DNA of 64,000 nucleotides from the NCBI GenBank assembly GCA_965279565.1, contig OZ257249.1, positions 3,644,750-3,708,749 of the forward strand, given 5' to 3'. This document shows, in pieces, positions 9,903 through 25,380 of this stretch. The notes under the pieces are model-generated. The model was not told where the DNA came from. It made no database searches and was given only the letters and a program-made list of their open reading frames with translations. How positions within the stretch are numbered: the first letter of the stretch is position 1; each line of letters begins with the position of its first letter. Source of the stretch: Tagaea sp. (GTDB lineage: Bacteria; Pseudomonadota; Alphaproteobacteria; CACIAM-22H2). Made by a program: the position numbers and the translations under genes.

Positions 9903-11726
<1,824 letters not shown>

Positions 11727-17193: not shown

Positions 17194-17372
17194 GTCGGCG
17201 CCGGATTTCGCGAAATGCAAAATCCCCGGAAAACTTTATGAAATAACAGCGACTAATCGCTGATCATGTGACGCCGGTCACCGCAATTCGCGTGACTTCG
17301 GACTACAAATTCCGCAAATCTTGCACTGCACACTGGCGACTCCGTCGTCCGCCCAGCGTCGCGCATCGAGCC

Positions 17373-18566
17373 ATGGAAGATACCGAACTCGAAGACGTCA
17401 AAAAGTATCTTGCGGCAACCAAGGCAGCCCTCGCCGGCGCGCCGCAGAAGCCGCACGACCTGTCGCACAAGAATCTCGCGAAAGCGAATTTCGAAGGCCG
17501 GTCGATGGTGCGCGCGCGCCTGATGGGCTCGAATCTCCGCGAAGCGCGACTTGCACGTGCGGAACTGACCGAGGCCGACCTGTTCGGCGCCAATCTTTCT
17601 TTCGCCGACATGAACGGCGCCAACTTGAGCGGCGCCGTGCTGCGCGGTGCCGCACTCAAGGGTGCCAACATGAACGGTGCCAACCTTGCCGGCGCCGACT
17701 TCCGTGGCGGCGTGATGATGGGCGCTTCCGGTACCGGTCGCATCGGGCTCGATGTGACCGACCTGACGGACTGCCTTGCGGAGTACGCCACGGCGTCGCG
17801 CGCGCAGATGGCCGGCGTCGACCTGTCGGGCGCGAGCTTCCAGGGCGCCAATCTCGAAGGTGCCATCCTTTTCGGCGCAAATCTCGCGAACACGAACCTT
17901 GCCTATGCCAATCTCCGTGGTGCCGACCTGTCGGATGCGCGGATGGGCAAGACGTCGCTGATCGGCGCCGATCTTTCCGGCGCCAAGCTTGCCAACATCA
18001 AGGCGGACGGGGCCAATTTCTCCGGTGCCAAGATGGCAAATGTCGAGATGAAGAATCTCGACCTCTCGAAATGCATCGTCGAGGCCAGCCCCCCGCTCGT
18101 CGGGCGCGACAAGCTGCCGGCAAAGCTTCGCACCGCACTCGACAGCCACGCCGAATGGCTGGCCTCGGTCGGAAAAAAAGGTGCCCCGGCGCATCTCGAG
18201 GGTGCCGATTTCAGCTATTTCGATCTTTCGGGGATCGATCTCAGCGGCGCCATCCTGCGCAACGCCAGATTCGTCGGAACGCGCCTGACCGGCGCCATCC
18301 TGCTTCTGGCCAATCTTCGCGGCGCCGACCTTTTCCATGCCGACCTGACCGGCGCCAAACTCCACGGGACGATGTTCGACGGCGCCAAGCTCCGCGAAAC
18401 CGACCTTGCGGACGCGATCGCCGGAACACTGCCGATCGCGAACAGCGACGGATCGCAGTCCAATCGCGCGCAGCCGACCAGCTTCATGCATGCCGACCTG
18501 ACCGGTGCGCGCGTCAAGGGCTTCAATATCGGCCACGCCAATACCGAAGGCGCCCGCCTTCCCTGA
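17373..18566 (+). CDS. Pentapeptide-repeat protein (two repeat blocks)
   Basis: Long A(D/N)LxG runs split by a helical segment (LDSHAEWLASVGKKGAPAHLEGADF). Start uncertain, 17268-17373. Confidence 0.9.
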   Translation: MEDTELEDVKKYLAATKAALAGAPQKPHDLSHKNLAKANFEGRSMVRARLMGSNLREARLARAELTEADLFGANLSFADMNGANLSGAVLRGAALKGANMNGANLAGADFRGGVMMGASGTGRIGLDVTDLTDCLAEYATASRAQMAGVDLSGASFQGANLEGAILFGANLANTNLAYANLRGADLSDARMGKTSLIGADLSGAKLANIKADGANFSGAKMANVEMKNLDLSKCIVEASPPLVGRDKLPAKLRTALDSHAEWLASVGKKGAPAHLEGADFSYFDLSGIDLSGAILRNARFVGTRLTGAILLLANLRGADLFHADLTGAKLHGTMFDGAKLRETDLADAIAGTLPIANSDGSQSNRAQPTSFMHADLTGARVKGFNIGHANTEGARLP

Positions 18567-18569
18567 CCG

Positions 18570-19688
18570 TCAGCTTGCCGGACGCACCAGCGTCAGTTCG
18601 GCGTGCTGCAGGCCGCAATAATAGGGATCGACCCCGTCGAGGAAGGCATTGAGCTTCATGTTGAAGCAGAAATGCTCGATGCCGTGCTTGTCGACGACGC
18701 GGATCTTCTGGCGCTGGAACCTGCCTTCGGGCATGCGGCGGCCGGTCAAATAGAGAGACGTCCGTTCGATCCGGTGCCCCATGACGGGAAGATCGATGAG
18801 GCGCGCGAGTCCGCCCGCGACGCGCTCGACGAACTGTTCCTCGTCGATCCAGACGCCGTTGACGTCGTCCCAGCGGTGGAACGCGCCGACGAGAATCTGG
18901 TCGGCCCGGCAGTTGGCGATGAGACGCGCGACCTGGATCGTCACGTCGCCGACGATGAACTCGTTGCGCCCGGTCCCGGCGCGGTCCGGCTGGTGGTAGT
19001 TGTAGTGACTGCCGATCCCGAGTGCCGCCCGCAGGATGGGAACGGCCTCGGGGACCGCCACCGAGCGGCGAAGTGCGGCGTGGAAGATCGCGAACAGCAC
19101 ATAGCCGAGGAACAGGTCGATGTCGGCTTCGAGCCCCTTGCGCTCGTTCCAGATATAGAAGCCATCGCCGGTCGTCGAACGGCACAGCTGGAATCCGATG
19201 TCGTGCGCAAGGGCCGTTTCGGCAGCGATGTTCAGCGCAAACTCGAGCGTGGCGAGCTGGCTCGCCTGCTGTTCGGGCAGCAATTTCGAGAATCCGACAA
19301 TGTCGAGCAGCAGCACGGCGCGCTGGTCTGTCTTTGTCACCGCAAAGGGCGCGAAAACCTCTTCGACGACCGAAGCTGCCGTCTGGCCCGGTCCGTCGCC
19401 GATCGTCTGGGTCAGGCGGATATCGAGAGCCCGCGACTGCAGCACCTCGGATACTTCTTCGAACGTCTTGTCGCCCATCTGGCGCGCGCCGACGAAAATC
19501 CGGCGCGGCGCGTCCTTCAGCGCAAACAGCCTGATCTTCGGCGCGGTGATGATTTCCATGCCGGTGGATGTCGGCCGCCAGCCGACGAGCGCGTTCGATC
19601 CGAAGCGCCACACGGAATAGAGCGTGCGGTGCAGTTCGGCGCGGATCTCTGGCGCGGTATCGGCGGAAGGGGCAATGTCTGTCGGCAT
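18570..19688 (-). CDS. Divergent class III nucleotidyl cyclase-like protein
   Basis: LLLDIVGFSK, STTGDGF, LRAALGIG, IVGDVTIQVARL and VVDKHG occur in cyclase order. Confidence 0.6.
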   Translation of the reverse strand: MPTDIAPSADTAPEIRAELHRTLYSVWRFGSNALVGWRPTSTGMEIITAPKIRLFALKDAPRRIFVGARQMGDKTFEEVSEVLQSRALDIRLTQTIGDGPGQTAASVVEEVFAPFAVTKTDQRAVLLLDIVGFSKLLPEQQASQLATLEFALNIAAETALAHDIGFQLCRSTTGDGFYIWNERKGLEADIDLFLGYVLFAIFHAALRRSVAVPEAVPILRAALGIGSHYNYHQPDRAGTGRNEFIVGDVTIQVARLIANCRADQILVGAFHRWDDVNGVWIDEEQFVERVAGGLARLIDLPVMGHRIERTSLYLTGRRMPEGRFQRQKIRVVDKHGIEHFCFNMKLNAFLDGVDPYYCGLQHAELTLVRPAS

Positions 19689-19805: not shown

Positions 19806-20123
19806 TCATTCGACATCGAGTTCGACGAAGAACCCCCCGCCCGGCGGATCGGCAAGCGGTGCGAAGCTTGCGACCCGTTCGCGACGCCGGGCTTCGAGTA
19901 GGAACCTTCCGACCGGATGGAACAATGTCTCTCCGCCGCCGGGCACGGGCGGATCGATCCGGACCGCATAGCGGACCGGTCCCGGACGGACCGGTTCATC
20001 GACCAACCGCTTCAGGCGCGCGAGCGCTTCCGCCAACGCCAGGCCGCGAAGGTCGAGTTCCGCTTCGGCCGCATCACCATCGTGCAGCAAGTGACGCGCC
20101 TGTTCGGGATCGAGATGCGGCAT
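19806..20123 (-). CDS. Small Smr-like domain protein (degenerate)
   Basis: ELDLRGLALAEALARL resembles the Smr LDLHG-helix. ATG 20123 overlaps the GT stop (TGATG). Confidence 0.55.
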   Translation of the reverse strand: MPHLDPEQARHLLHDGDAAEAELDLRGLALAEALARLKRLVDEPVRPGPVRYAVRIDPPVPGGGETLFHPVGRFLLEARRRERVASFAPLADPPGGGFFVELDVE

Positions 20124-21394
20124 CAGAGCCCTGCCCGCACGGAATCGAGCACTCTGCCGAATCCCTCGACCCAGGGTGCAATGGCATGGTTGCGCGCGAC
20201 GTGGGCGCGGCCGGCACGCGACAGCGCCAGCCGGTGCACGCGATCGCGCGCGAGTTCGTCCATTGCGGCGACGAGATTGGCGGCGAACGTCGCGTCGTAG
20301 GATTTCATCATCGGCTCGAAGGTCTGGTTGAGGAAACCCCACTGGTCGTACCACGAAGTCTTGCCAAGGCGTCCCTTCACCGCGATCCCGGTCTCGCCGT
20401 CAGCGACGAACTCGTCGACTGCCGGCGCATCCGACGCGATGGTTGCCGCACCGCAGGCCATCGCCTGCAGCAGCGATACCGTGTGCAGCCCGCAGGACGG
20501 GATCAGGAACACATCCGCGCGCAGGAACAGGTCGACGAAATCGCCGAACGCCAGCTTCGTGTCGACGATCTCGACATTCGGGATCGAGCGCACGAACTTC
20601 TCGAAGTCCGGCCCGAAGAGTTTCGGAATCTGCGTGCGCAGGATCAGGCGACATTCCGGCCGGCGCGCGACGAGCGTGCCGAACGCAGCCAACGTCTCCA
20701 TCCCGCCGCGCAGCACGAAACTTTCGTCGTGCTGGCCCCACGAGTTCGTGAACAGGAACGTGCAGCCCGAACGTCCCGCGCGGGCGTCCTGCGCTGCATC
20801 GATGCGCGCCTGGATTTCGGGCGGGAAGTCGATGCCGAACGGAATGTAATGGGATTTTTCCTGGATCTTCGGGCTGTCGAACAGCTTTCCGATGAATTCG
20901 TGGCTGTGCCGGAGATGCGACGAAACGGCACGGCAGCGATCGCTTTCGAGCATGGCCCGCACGAGCGCCCAGACAGGCATCGACCGCACGTCGGCATTGG
21001 CTGTCTTGCCGTGCCACAGGAACGGAGCGAACAGCGTCATGAGCTCTTCGATATGCGCGAGCCAAGGCCGCTGGCCGAACACGAAAGGCATCGAGTGCGG
21101 CAGCGTCAGGTCCGGCTCCGCGGCGGCGATCTGTGCCTGGCTTTCGATATCCCGGCTTTCGGCGAACTTCACCACCGCCTCGCGTGGCACGCCGGGAACG
21201 GCGGCGGCAAGCTCAGCGACCAGCGCTTCGCGCTCCGCGAGCGCCTGCACGCGGTGCGCTTGGGTGGGTGCCGGCATGTCGAGAAGGAACTCGTAGCCGG
21301 CGCGCGGCGCAAGCAGGCTCGTCATCATCGGATGGTCGCCGCCGAGCCATTGGAAGATCGGCGTGCGCCAGGGTGCGGCAACGCGGTAAGTCAC
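20123..21394 (-). CDS. Glycosyltransferase, GT-B fold (GT4-like)
   Basis: ADVFLIPS, LLQAMACGAATIASD and GETG motifs. GTG 21394 forms a GTGA overlap with the upstream stop. Confidence 0.8.
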   Translation of the reverse strand: MTYRVAAPWRTPIFQWLGGDHPMMTSLLAPRAGYEFLLDMPAPTQAHRVQALAEREALVAELAAAVPGVPREAVVKFAESRDIESQAQIAAAEPDLTLPHSMPFVFGQRPWLAHIEELMTLFAPFLWHGKTANADVRSMPVWALVRAMLESDRCRAVSSHLRHSHEFIGKLFDSPKIQEKSHYIPFGIDFPPEIQARIDAAQDARAGRSGCTFLFTNSWGQHDESFVLRGGMETLAAFGTLVARRPECRLILRTQIPKLFGPDFEKFVRSIPNVEIVDTKLAFGDFVDLFLRADVFLIPSCGLHTVSLLQAMACGAATIASDAPAVDEFVADGETGIAVKGRLGKTSWYDQWGFLNQTFEPMMKSYDATFAANLVAAMDELARDRVHRLALSRAGRAHVARNHAIAPWVEGFGRVLDSVRAGL

Positions 21395-22383
21395 GCGCGG
21401 TCGCCCAGCCGCAATTCGACCTGGGCCGCGGTCGGTACCATCGCGGGGCGCGCGCGCATCGTCGCATGCAGGTCGCAGGTTCCCACGCCCGGCCGATAGA
21501 CTGGCTTGGGTGACGCGACGGCATAGGGGACCGGCGCCGTATCGCCGCCGCGCGCGAAATCGTCGCGCAGCAGCGTCGCGTATTCGAGGTTCCAGGTCGC
21601 CTGCTCCATCAGCGTTTCCTGCGGCAGCGTCGGCCGGTGGCCGGCCGCGCGCGCCACGCAGGCGAAACGGACCAGATGGTCGCCCGCAGGCAGCCAGCAC
21701 GCGTCGAGCGGCATCAACTTCAGGAAGCGCAGGAAATGGTCGAGCAGCGGAATCGTCGGAAACCAAGTGTCCGACGGGCCGAGCACGTAGCCCGTACCGG
21801 CGAAGTTGTACTGCATCATGTAGGCGTCGAGCGGCAGTGCTGCCGTCTCGATCACCATTAGGCCGCCGGGCCGCAGCGCACTGCGCGCCGAGGCAAGGAC
21901 ATGGAACGGCGAGAACACGTGATAGAGCACGCCCGAGCAGATCACGACGTCGAACCCCTGTCGGGGTTCAGGTGCGCCCGTATATCGGTGGCGGGTGATC
22001 TCGCCGGCGTGACGCTCCTCCAGCGCGCGCAGCAGCGAACCGGACATGACGTTCGGCAGATACGCGAAGTCGGCGTCGTAGGCTGCCTTGACGCAGGCGA
22101 TCTTGTCGGAGAAATCAAGGCCGTCGACCGCGACGACGTCCGCGGCTCCCCGCCGCTTCAGCAGCACCGGGACGAGTCCTTCCATCGTTCCGATGTCGAG
22201 GCACCGCGTGCCCGCAAGGTCGATGCGCGAAATCAGGTCGCGCGTCAGCGCGACGTTCGGGAAGCGTTGCCCCGGCGTGACGATCCCGTCGCCAAGCTCC
22301 ATCGCGTAGTACCAGTACTGTCCGAGGAACGAACGCTTGCGTTCTTCGCTCGCAAGCCAGGGAAGTCCGGTCACGTCGATCAC
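21391..22383 (-). CDS. Class I SAM-dependent methyltransferase (CmoB/DUF1698-like)
   Basis: WYYAMELGDGIVTPG, RCLDIGTMEG, FDVVICSGVLYH and PGGLMVIET motifs. GTG 22383 forms a GTGA overlap. Confidence 0.82.
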   Translation of the reverse strand: MIDVTGLPWLASEERKRSFLGQYWYYAMELGDGIVTPGQRFPNVALTRDLISRIDLAGTRCLDIGTMEGLVPVLLKRRGAADVVAVDGLDFSDKIACVKAAYDADFAYLPNVMSGSLLRALEERHAGEITRHRYTGAPEPRQGFDVVICSGVLYHVFSPFHVLASARSALRPGGLMVIETAALPLDAYMMQYNFAGTGYVLGPSDTWFPTIPLLDHFLRFLKLMPLDACWLPAGDHLVRFACVARAAGHRPTLPQETLMEQATWNLEYATLLRDDFARGGDTAPVPYAVASPKPVYRPGVGTCDLHATMRARPAMVPTAAQVELRLGDRA

Positions 22384-23360
22384 TCCGCCTTGATTCGGGA
22401 CCAGCGCCGGATGGCGCCGGGATTTTCGACAAGCGTCCGCCTGTACCACGCGACGGTCGCCGCGAGTCCGGCTTCGAGGTCGGTATAGCGGTGTCCGGAA
22501 AGCGCGACGAAGGCCGAATTGTCGGTCACGCGCCGGTCGATGCCGCGCGCACGCGACGGATCGAAACGGATCCGATCCTCCGGCACGCCACACAGACGGG
22601 CAAGAACCATCGCGACCGACCGGATCGTCTGCGCCTGTCCGCAGCCGACATTGAGCAGGTCGGCGGACGAATGGTTGGCAAGGCACCACATGTAGGCGCG
22701 CGCCATGTCCGGCGCATAGGTGATTTCGCGCAGCGGGCTGCCATCGCCCCAGATGGAAAGATCGCCGGCCGCCGGCGTCCATTCGCAGAAGCGCCGGACG
22801 AGACCGGCGATCCACGTGCAGTCGTCCGGGTTGTAGTTGTCGTCCGGCCCGTAGATGCCCGAAGGCACCAGTCCGATCACGTCGAGCGAATGCTCCGCGC
22901 GGTAGGCGCGGATCGCAGGCTCCATCAGCCGCTTGGCCATCGCGTAGGAATAGGCGGTTTCGTGCGGCAACCCTTCGTGGATCTGCTTCTCGGTGTTCGG
23001 CTGGGGGGCTTCCGCCGGATACATGCCCGACGACAGCGTCAGCACGACCTTGTCGAGCCTGTGCGCCACGGCCGCATCGAGGACGGCGAAGCACATCGCG
23101 ACATTGTCGCGCAGGATGCGCGCGGGATAGCGCCGGGCGAGATCGATGCCGCCGGAGATCGCGGCAAGGTGGATGATCCTGCGAATGCCTTCCCGACCGA
23201 CGAAATCGTGCACCGCGCGGGCATCGGTCAGGTCGAGGATCCGGCGATCGGTGAAGACGAACTCGTGGTCGGCATGTGATTGCGCGAGCCCGACGAAGGC
23301 CGCACCCAGTACGCCCGTCGATCCCGTCACCAGCAGTCGCGGGCGCCGGCCAGCCGACAT
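22380..23360 (-). CDS. GDP-L-fucose-synthase-like extended SDR (NDP-4-keto-sugar reductase)
   Basis: VTGSTGVLG, HLAAISGGI, YAMAK (YxxxK), IYGPDDNY and IWGDGSPLRE motifs. Confidence 0.85.
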   Translation of the reverse strand: MSAGRRPRLLVTGSTGVLGAAFVGLAQSHADHEFVFTDRRILDLTDARAVHDFVGREGIRRIIHLAAISGGIDLARRYPARILRDNVAMCFAVLDAAVAHRLDKVVLTLSSGMYPAEAPQPNTEKQIHEGLPHETAYSYAMAKRLMEPAIRAYRAEHSLDVIGLVPSGIYGPDDNYNPDDCTWIAGLVRRFCEWTPAAGDLSIWGDGSPLREITYAPDMARAYMWCLANHSSADLLNVGCGQAQTIRSVAMVLARLCGVPEDRIRFDPSRARGIDRRVTDNSAFVALSGHRYTDLEAGLAATVAWYRRTLVENPGAIRRWSRIKAE

Positions 23361-23361
23361 C

Positions 23362-25380
23362 CTAGAAATGCCCGGCGAGGTGCCGTGCCAGCGCCTTGTT
23401 TCCGTAGAGATAGGCACCCTTCTTGTTGCCGTACCAGACCACTTCGCGGCACCAGTCGGCGAATACCGGCCAGGGTTCCTTCGAACGCTCGATGCGGTAG
23501 GCGACCGGCTCCTCGACCAGTTCCTCGCTGCGCCCTTCGAGGATCGCGCGATAATAAGGGTAGAGATCGCTGCCGAGACGCACTTCGATGTCGGCAAGGA
23601 CGCCCGGTTCCTTGACGAGCGCGCGGTTCAGGCGGAACGCGTCGGCGACGGTCTCGCGCGGCACGAGCGATCGGTGCTCGGAGATCGACGACAGGACGAG
23701 GCGTTCGGCCTCGGCATAGAACGCATCGAGCTTCCCGCCCGCGACGAGGTCGATGAACACGTACTCGTCCGCCGGCCAGTGGATGCCGAGCCATTTTTCC
23801 GAGAACACGTATTCGACGGCGCCGTCCTGGATCTGGCGGGCATAGTCGTCGAAGAACGCGCGGATCGCGCCGATGACGGGATAGTCGGCGGCGTCGGCAC
23901 GGAAAAACGCCTCGAGCAGACGACGGAATGGCACACCGCATTTCTCGTGCGCGACGAGGATCGGGATCTGCAGCAGCTTGTTGTAGTGGATCAGCGCCGT
24001 CATCCACGCGAAGCTGCGCGCCCTGCGCCAGTCGGCAGCGGGCATCGACGCCGTCTCGACGACCAGATCCTGCGTCTCGTAGATGCCGTCGGGATCGACG
24101 TCGATCGAACCGTGGATGTTGACGATCTTCGTCACGACCGTCCGCATGCCGTACTTCTCCTGATAGGCAGGATCGCCCATCTCGGCGTTCGGCAGAATCG
24201 ACAGGTTGTTGAACTGGATGCGGTTGTGCTGGCCGTTGTCCATCAGCCAGCAGACCCCGTCGACCCACGAATCGTAGGTCTCACCCGGCAGACCGAGAAT
24301 GAGGTCCGAATAGGTCTCGACGCGGTCACGCGTGAAGCGGCGCTGCAGTTCCTCGTAGGTGTCGAGCGCGATGTTCTGCCGCTTGATCGCCTTCAGCGTG
24401 CCGGGATCGAGCGACTGCATGGAGAGCGTGACGCCCTTGTTCATGCCGGCGTCCGACAGGATCTTCTGCGTGAGGTAGGCGCGGTCGGTCGCGTTCTTCG
24501 TGTTCTGGACGGACACCGCCTTCGGATAACCACGCTCGGCCTTCGTCCGGGCGAGCGATTCGGCGAGCTGGATGTCGCGCGCGAGGATCCCGAAATTCGC
24601 GTCGCAGCAGAAGATGAACTCGATCTTCCGGTCGGCGAACCAGCCGATCTCGCGGTCGAGGCGCGCAAGATCGAACTGGAAGACCTTTGCCTGCGTCGCG
24701 GAGCCCCAGTCGCAGAACGTGCACTGGAACGGGCAGCCGCGGTTGGTCTCCCACAGGACGATCCAGTTTTCCTGCGGATTGGCCGCCATCAGCGGATCGA
24801 ATATTCCTTCGAGGTAGGGCGACGGAACATCGTTGAGATCGCGGATACGCGGCCCCTTCGCCTGGCAGACGAAGGCGCCGTCGCGCACATACGAGAGGTT
24901 CGCGATGCCCGACCATTCGCGCGACGGCCAGGCTTCGAGCAGCTTCGTGAACGCATGCTCGCCTTCGCCGTTGATCGCGACGTCGATGAACGGGTTCTCG
25001 CGCAGGAACGGCTCGGTCCGGTCGGGGACCTGCGGTCCGCCGAACACGATCAGGATTCCAGGCTTGCGCCTTTTAAGCTCCCGCGCGACCGCCAGCGACA
25101 GCTTGACGTTCCAGACATAGGTGGAGAAGCCGACGACGTCGGCCTCGATAAGCTGCTCGACTGTCTCGGCGACGCGCTGGCGCTTGTAGACCGGGAGCAG
25201 GAACTCAAAGCGCGCAGGTGCCGCGGCGAACTTGCGCACATAGCCCTCGATCAGGCCGACCGCGTAGGGCAGGTAATTCTGCCCCGAAAAGCTGTTGTTG
25301 ATCTGGATGAGACCGATCTTGCACGGCGTGGCGGCGTGTGGGGGCAAAGCCGTCGCTCCAGTCTGGACTTGCGGGTTCAT
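23362..25380 (-). CDS. Cobalamin-dependent radical SAM enzyme
   Basis: B12-binding region (YLPYAVG, DVVGFSTYVWN, VFGGPQV, GEGE) and CxxxCxxC in ETNRGCPFQCTFCDWG. Alternative start 25446. Confidence 0.92.
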   Translation of the reverse strand: MNPQVQTGATALPPHAATPCKIGLIQINNSFSGQNYLPYAVGLIEGYVRKFAAAPARFEFLLPVYKRQRVAETVEQLIEADVVGFSTYVWNVKLSLAVARELKRRKPGILIVFGGPQVPDRTEPFLRENPFIDVAINGEGEHAFTKLLEAWPSREWSGIANLSYVRDGAFVCQAKGPRIRDLNDVPSPYLEGIFDPLMAANPQENWIVLWETNRGCPFQCTFCDWGSATQAKVFQFDLARLDREIGWFADRKIEFIFCCDANFGILARDIQLAESLARTKAERGYPKAVSVQNTKNATDRAYLTQKILSDAGMNKGVTLSMQSLDPGTLKAIKRQNIALDTYEELQRRFTRDRVETYSDLILGLPGETYDSWVDGVCWLMDNGQHNRIQFNNLSILPNAEMGDPAYQEKYGMRTVVTKIVNIHGSIDVDPDGIYETQDLVVETASMPAADWRRARSFAWMTALIHYNKLLQIPILVAHEKCGVPFRRLLEAFFRADAADYPVIGAIRAFFDDYARQIQDGAVEYVFSEKWLGIHWPADEYVFIDLVAGGKLDAFYAEAERLVLSSISEHRSLVPRETVADAFRLNRALVKEPGVLADIEVRLGSDLYPYYRAILEGRSEELVEEPVAYRIERSKEPWPVFADWCREVVWYGNKKGAYLYGNKALARHLAGHF

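Follow-up and report, generated by a model that had tools for sequence, protein, structure and literature searches.

A GDP-fucose synthase-like protein of Tagaea sp. lacks the epimerase dyad and belongs to a distinct clade of putative GDP-keto-sugar reductases

An Fcl-like gene in a radical-SAM operon

We analysed a 64,000-nucleotide stretch of the Tagaea sp. genome (hereafter the window; GCA_965279565.1, contig OZ257249.1, positions 3,644,750 to 3,708,749; ~66% GC) that contains a gene for a short-chain dehydrogenase/reductase (SDR) resembling the GDP-L-fucose synthase Fcl (326 aa; minus strand, ATG at 23360 to TGA at 22380). This SDR gene is the second of a tightly packed operon, all of it on the minus strand. 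The first gene (23362..25380) encodes a 672-aa protein which, by homology and domains, is a cobalamin-dependent radical S-adenosylmethionine (radical-SAM) C-methyltransferase of the TokK/CysS/KedN5 type. Downstream of the SDR gene lie the genes for a class I SAM-dependent methyltransferase (MT; 330 aa, 21391..22383) and a GT4/GT-B glycosyltransferase (GT; ~423 aa, 20123..21394), and last a small open reading frame (ORF) of 105 aa with no assigned function (19806..20123). The radical-SAM stop codon is located 1 nt ahead of the SDR start (TAGgATG), the GTG starts of MT and GT overlap the stops of SDR and MT, respectively (GTGA in both cases), and the ATG of the small ORF overlaps the GT stop (TGATG). 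An Smr label was considered for the small ORF and rejected, the match not being significant (E 0.16). The SDR, MT and GT genes form a 3.24 kb cassette (20124..23361) whose presence varies among genomes of the genus, as described below.

Active-site residues and the dyad-less clade

Among all PDB sequences, the best match of the SDR (phmmer) was the E. coli GDP-fucose synthase/GMER 1e6u (E 2.9e-44; residues 6-307 of the query aligned to 3-313 of the chain). An initial annotation, aligning the protein by eye, had proposed that it keeps the reductase triad of Fcl and has lost both epimerase residues, and the formal alignment with E. coli GMER confirms this observation: there is neither Cys nor His at the catalytic positions of the SDR. 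SSCIYP pairs with SSGMYP, Cys109 corresponding to Gly112 (codon 23025-23027), and NSHVIPALLRRF pairs with DCTWIAGLVRRF, His179 corresponding to Thr182 (codon 22815-22817); Cys181 of the SDR occupies the column of E. coli Ser178. Ser107, Tyr136 and Lys140 are retained as Ser110, Tyr139 and Lys143 (the YxxxK motif reading YAMAK), and the Rossmann GxxGxxG motif is formed by G13, G16 and G19. The Fcl-type elements of the GDP-sugar site, WGxGxPxRE and RRF, are conserved in the SDR and across its clade, while E. coli Asn165 (in the P-T-N-L-Y-G motif) is replaced by Gly168. An AlphaFold2 model of the SDR (pLDDT 90.9) superposed best on the human (4bl5) and E. coli (1e6u) GDP-fucose synthases (TM 0.85-0.91), followed by the Campylobacter jejuni GDP-heptose C4-reductases (8ewu, 7anh, 7m13, 7cxt and 7anc; TM 0.76-0.87). 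Thus, the SDR has the fold, the GxxGxxG motif and the Ser/Tyr/Lys triad of Fcl and departs from it in four features: the Cys/His dyad, Asn165, the coupling to gmd (see below) and the score on the NCBIfam Fcl equivalog NF047922 (188.9 bits, below the cut-off of 500).

The loss of the dyad is a property of a whole family. Cys109 was present in 63/63 canonical Fcl sequences and in 0/116 family members, a difference that is not due to chance, and, of the sequences tabulated, the canonical Fcl proteins had His at position 179 whereas the clade members never did. The 120 homologues listed in a search of 5.8 billion proteins all carried S/T-x-G/A/S-x-Y-P, mostly as S-x-G-M-Y-P, with no His at position 179. 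Because that search was word-biased, the dyad test was repeated in two other ways. In a set of 80 loci, with each species represented by one genome, both dyad residues were missing from all relatives with 36% identity or more, and all those with no more than 33% had S-S-C-I-Y-P together with S-H-V; when 1.84 billion cluster representatives were searched exhaustively with phmmer, the same switch appeared at ~180-200 bits. In a maximum-likelihood tree, the dyad-less proteins formed one clade among the canonical Fcl sequences (SH-aLRT 99; 38 of the 60 rows), implying that the dyad was lost in a single ancient event.

The dyad is not all that changed, and the initial annotation had overlooked these further invariant differences in the active site. 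At the Asn165 position, where 63/63 canonical sequences have Asn, 94% of the family carry Gly, and five residues are newly invariant in the clade: Arg84 (Tyr81 in E. coli), His128 (Leu125), His133 (Glu130), Tyr137 (Glu134) and Arg144 (Ile141). In all, at least eight invariant positions separate the clade from canonical Fcl.

In one subgroup, with T-T-G-M-Y-P, the catalytic Tyr of YxxxK is replaced by Ser (by Leu in L013), and the clade-specific Tyr two residues upstream (Tyr137) is retained. Its members are found at loci L010, L012 and L014-L017 (the SDR at ~10001-10957) and among the protein representatives P0043, P0056 and P0090, P0056 (Geomonas) corresponding to locus L012.

Genomic partners and the candidate reaction

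In Desulfobacterota, Chloroflexota, Acidobacteriota, Nitrospirota and Geomonas, the dyad-less SDR was encoded in a constant gene order: a nucleoside triphosphate (NTP)-transferase, a GHMP kinase, a split transketolase (N and C parts), a 311-aa SDR, the dyad-less SDR and an aldo-keto reductase (AKR). Among 22 family loci, an AKR was adjacent in 14, a split thiamine pyrophosphate (TPP) enzyme in 12, an HddA-like kinase in 12 and a Cj1427-like SDR in 10. The partner SDR shares 55% identity with Cj1427 (6vo6/6vo8) and superposes on it with a TM of 0.94, the identity of 6vo6 as Cj1427 having been confirmed by a fold search with the partner-SDR model. The partner kinase resembles WcbL/HddA, and the NTP-transferase of a deltaproteobacterial metagenome-assembled genome (L085) is HddC-like (247 bits, cut-off 300). 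In contrast, gmd was adjacent to 0/23 family members vs 42/62 canonical Fcl loci; some family clusters contain a second Fcl paralogue that retains both Cys and His.

Two observations concern these partners themselves. A metagenomic representative of 658 aa (P0243) is a natural fusion of an AKR (residues 1 to ~328) with a dyad-less SDR; its SDR half is 62% identical to the window protein and its AKR half resembles the AKR encoded in the window's own genome. At the head of the L085 cluster, which holds a Cj1427 orthologue, lies a gene for an L-2-hydroxyglutarate oxidase (L085:1171-2397; 309 bits, cut-off 299), found in this locus only. Cj1427 consumes alpha-ketoglutarate and releases L-2-hydroxyglutarate (PMC10680097), which the L085 oxidase would recycle.

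There are direct precedents for a reductase of this fold that does not epimerise. In C. jejuni, DdahC (Thr110/His180) and MlghC (Tyr108/Arg180) are GDP-fucose synthase (GFS)-like reductases devoid of epimerase activity (PMC7949155), and most C4-reductases of this organism do not epimerise (PMC10680097); the "reductase-only" enzyme of the initial annotation is therefore plausible. The C. jejuni C4-reductases (Cj1428/MlghC, DdahC and HS:15; 7m13, 7anc, 7anh and 8ewu) share with the SDR a GFS-like fold without the Cys/His dyad, and they act after Cj1427 or a 4,6-dehydratase, just as the SDR family clusters with homologues of Cj1427, HddA and HddC. They differ from it in that only the N-terminal half (residues 8-191) aligns (E 6e-26 to 1e-15), in the dyad positions (Gly/Thr in the SDR vs Thr/His or Tyr/Arg) and in length, the proteins of the SDR family being about 20 residues shorter. 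We know of no AKR or split transketolase, the partners of the SDR family, in the C. jejuni clusters. GDP-L-fucose synthase (1e6u, 4bl5) is the closest known enzyme in both sequence (~32-34% identity) and fold and shares the triad, the Rossmann motif, WGxGxPxRE and RRF; the differences are the absent Cys109, His179 and Asn165, the clade invariants listed above and the location of the family, never beside gmd. On this comparison, the SDR is best read as probably similar in function to the Campylobacter C4-reductases, yet as a separate lineage and not as a member of their sequence group.

The explanation we favour, with somewhat better than even confidence, is that the SDR is a non-epimerising GDP-4-keto-sugar reductase, because the triad and the elements of the GDP site are kept and because the family occupies the reductase slot beside Cj1427 orthologues in other phyla. 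It would be an NAD(P)H-dependent ketoreductase acting on a GDP-linked keto-sugar with no epimerisation at C3 or C5. Its clade, an ancient sister group to GDP-fucose synthase, parted with Asn165 and the Cys/His dyad a single time and gained invariants of its own. Across phyla this clade occupies the place expected of the C4-reductase in GDP-heptose-type clusters. From these clusters, we infer that the most likely substrate is GDP-4-keto-heptose, supplied by the organism's own Cj1427 orthologue, or an epimer of it, with the Gmd product as the main alternative.

In the genome of the window, a sugar island at C1:914-932 kb contains orthologues of the AKR (C1:918393-919397) and of Cj1427 (C1:926118-927062; E 1.3e-113 to 6vo6), an HddA-like kinase and a DegT-family enzyme, as well as E1 alpha/beta TPP subunits and RmlA/RmlB-like and RfbF-like proteins (named by eye from sequence). 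A GmhA-like gene is also present in the genome (185 bits), and the window SDR is its sole dyad-less SDR. The genome further encodes a canonical pair of its own at C1:259-261 kb, 3.4 Mb from the window SDR: gmd scores 614 bits and fcl, which retains both Cys and His, 483 bits. As a paralogue, the window SDR is therefore not needed for fucose.

Two more Fcl-like paralogues are encoded in the same genome (C1:2263668-2264417 and C1:3236327-3237259, with Fcl model scores of 146 and 132 bits), the first of which has S-T-V-S-V-Y-P, Val for the catalytic Tyr and no His179. In the six genomes of one subclade of the genus (G028, G032, G033, G035, G039 and G045), the AKR orthologue (61-62% identity) contains one in-frame stop of differing codon type, so that it may be a pseudogene or encode a shortened protein.

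Several observations weigh against a GDP-heptose C4-reductase. By sequence, GMER is a nearer relative of the SDR (E 3e-44) than any of the Campylobacter reductases, whose matches reach E 6e-26 at best. In this genome, a distance of 2.7 Mb separates the SDR gene from the genes for the Cj1427-like and HddA-like proteins, and a search of the genome for HddC found none that was convincing (best 109 bits vs a cut-off of 300), so that the case for a heptose is weaker in this organism. Nearly all genomes of the genus have a Cj1427-like gene, an AKR gene and gmd, with or without the cassette, so that the genus survey cannot identify the substrate. Finally, the canonical SDR mechanism does not explain the subgroup with Ser for Tyr, and the new invariant His, His, Tyr and Arg residues could serve another chemistry.

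A Gmd-derived substrate is the first alternative to be considered: the SDR would act like Rmd or Tld, converting the Gmd product GDP-4-keto-6-deoxy-D-mannose to GDP-D-rhamnose or GDP-6-deoxy-D-talose, which the GT would transfer and the MT would O-methylate. The fold and the GDP-binding elements are indeed of the GDP-fucose synthase type, the C. jejuni reductases also take mannose-derived substrates (PMC7949155), and gmd was found in 15/15 genomes of the genus that carry the cassette, if two copies cut by contig ends are included. We nevertheless consider it rather unlikely, given that gmd is never a neighbour of the family, whose recurrent partners are instead Cj1427-like, AKR and TPP enzymes, and that gmd also occurs in 4/6 genomes without the SDR, the association not being significant (Fisher estimate, p ~0.07).

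A second alternative is that the SDR is not a plain C4-reductase, and that its remodelled pocket (Arg84, His128, His133, Tyr137, Arg144 and Gly168) performs some other reaction on a product of the transketolase and AKR, for example reducing a carbonyl, at C6 or in a side chain, of a branched or chain-extended sugar, or epimerising its substrate in a redox-neutral way by means of new acid/base residues. The number of invariant differences from canonical Fcl speaks for it, as do the near-obligate adjacency of the AKR (with one fusion), the conserved order TK-N/TK-C/(Cj1427-like)/SDR/AKR and the retention of Tyr137 in the subgroup that has no catalytic Tyr. On the other side, the window SDR keeps the full Ser/Tyr/Lys triad and the literature searched offered no precedent, and we regard this alternative as unlikely. 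In a broader form, which we also hold to be improbable, the clade would be re-tooled as one half of an obligate pair with the AKR, working after the Cj1427-type dehydrogenase and the split transketolase in the synthesis of a hitherto undescribed sugar derived from GDP-heptose. If so, that sugar would possibly be branched or chain-extended and, in Tagaea, would be transferred, methylated and perhaps C-alkylated by the TokK-like radical-SAM enzyme.

The radical-SAM neighbour and the cassette

The radical-SAM protein of the window contains a B12-binding domain (PF02310) and a radical-SAM domain (PF04055) with the CxxxCxxC motif as CPFQCTFC. Judged from its matches to TokK (E 1.4e-103), CysS (E 1.4e-66) and the KedN5 model (269 bits), it is a genuine class B methylase. 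With these enzymes it shares the B12-binding domain and the CxxxCxxC core; it differs in that its score is below the KedN5 family cut-off of 700, that its C-terminal ~200 residues are unmatched and that its gene resides in sugar clusters and not in antibiotic clusters. The radical-SAM family is large (4872 matches at E below 1e-30).

An orthologous radical-SAM gene was adjacent in 5/22 family loci, four from Tagaea and one from L085, where the protein has 47-50% identity over ~650 aa and is encoded 1 kb from the family SDR; on the tree, this adjacency requires at least two gains. Conversely, radical-SAM orthologues of ~60% identity occurred at two loci with no such SDR nearby (L094 and L095). 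Two deltaproteobacterial-type clusters also contain a distant B12 radical-SAM gene (L014:12713-13561 and L017:6608-7114; 25-27% identity to that of the window) ~2 kb downstream of the family SDR.

The initial annotation had linked the two genes by cause, proposing that Cys and His were lost because the adjacent B12 radical-SAM methylase had made C3 or C5 of the substrate quaternary, and had suggested looking for co-variation between residue loss and radical-SAM presence. Although the class B character of the methylase, the 1-nt spacing of the two genes in one operon and the orthologue near the L085 SDR favour such a link, we consider it very improbable: the loss is clade-wide and predates the radical-SAM association, 17/22 family loci have no orthologous radical-SAM gene, radical-SAM orthologues exist without the SDR, and the nearest relatives with solved structures, TokK and CysS, extend exocyclic carbons, not sugar ring carbons. 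Nor does the chemistry call for such a link: the C3 and C5 positions of a 4-keto sugar are acidic, and ordinary SAM enzymes, TylC3 among them, normally methylate such positions. Dyad loss does not track radical-SAM presence and is not an adaptation to the adjacent methylase.

The distribution of the cassette within the genus separates the two genes further. Across 21 genomes of the genus, the radical-SAM gene was present in 19 and the SDR gene in 15, and the SDR was found in none of the genomes from 14 other genera of the family. Four genomes of the genus have an intact radical-SAM gene without the SDR-MT-GT cassette. In three of them (G034, G037 and G043), an intact radical-SAM gene (660-667 aa, 82% identity) ends directly against the small ORF, the sequences matching window positions 23364-25307 and 19819-20127 being contiguous; the loci with clean junctions and no cassette are L097, L098 and L101. 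SDR-MT-GT is thus a precise presence/absence cassette inside a radical-SAM/small-ORF operon, of which the radical-SAM gene is a resident, and these genomes together with the other loci show that radical-SAM and SDR each occur without the other. Identity of the radical-SAM protein was 87-95% and 76-79% in cassette-bearing genomes, flanking the 82% of the cassette-less ones, and the divergence of the SDR parallels that of the radical-SAM protein among cassette-bearing genomes. A single loss of the cassette would be the most parsimonious history. Locus L001 encodes a 45%-identical GT alongside a 56%-identical SDR.

If the SDR is the reductase that we favour, it would, in this genus, complete a donor sugar which the GT4 enzyme would transfer and the MT would methylate; the cassette would be an insert in a TokK-like radical-SAM operon, and the function of the radical-SAM enzyme would be independent of it.

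Variation in this region also includes an extra GT4 paralogue between the radical-SAM and SDR genes at L100 (G029:C12, 7761-9035; 48% identity to the cassette GT) and an 860-bp spacer between the same two genes at L099 (G046). The flanks of the operon are housekeeping in character: glmS, glmU, msrA, a pentapeptide-repeat protein and a Liv-type ABC transporter. About 117 nt beyond the small ORF lies the gene for a 372-aa protein (18570-19688, minus strand), which had no Pfam or NCBIfam match, is kept beside the operon across the genus (74-92% identity) and has two paralogues in the same genome (C1:409428-410471, 37%; C1:1282614-1283675, 26%). The pentapeptide-repeat gene (17268-18566, plus strand; 432 aa, eight Pfam repeat matches, E 3.6e-63) is convergent with this downstream neighbour of the operon.

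The clade as a whole is uncharacterised, widely distributed and routinely mis-named: its proteins receive the pipeline name "GDP-L-fucose synthase" (JGI names) despite the absence of the residues that make L-fucose, and nothing on the dyad-less clade or its gene module was found in the literature searched. Recognising the clade by its signature (S-x-G-M-Y-P, Gly at Asn165 and no His179, plus His128, His133 and Tyr137) corrects this annotation. In Tagaea, the presence or absence of the cassette among close genomes provides a ready comparison for finding the modified glycan. More broadly, the clade points to a widespread, uncharacterised GDP-heptose-type pathway, with a Cj1427-like dehydrogenase, a split transketolase, an AKR and the SDR, that ranges across Desulfobacterota, Chloroflexota, Acidobacteriota, Nitrospirota and Alphaproteobacteria.

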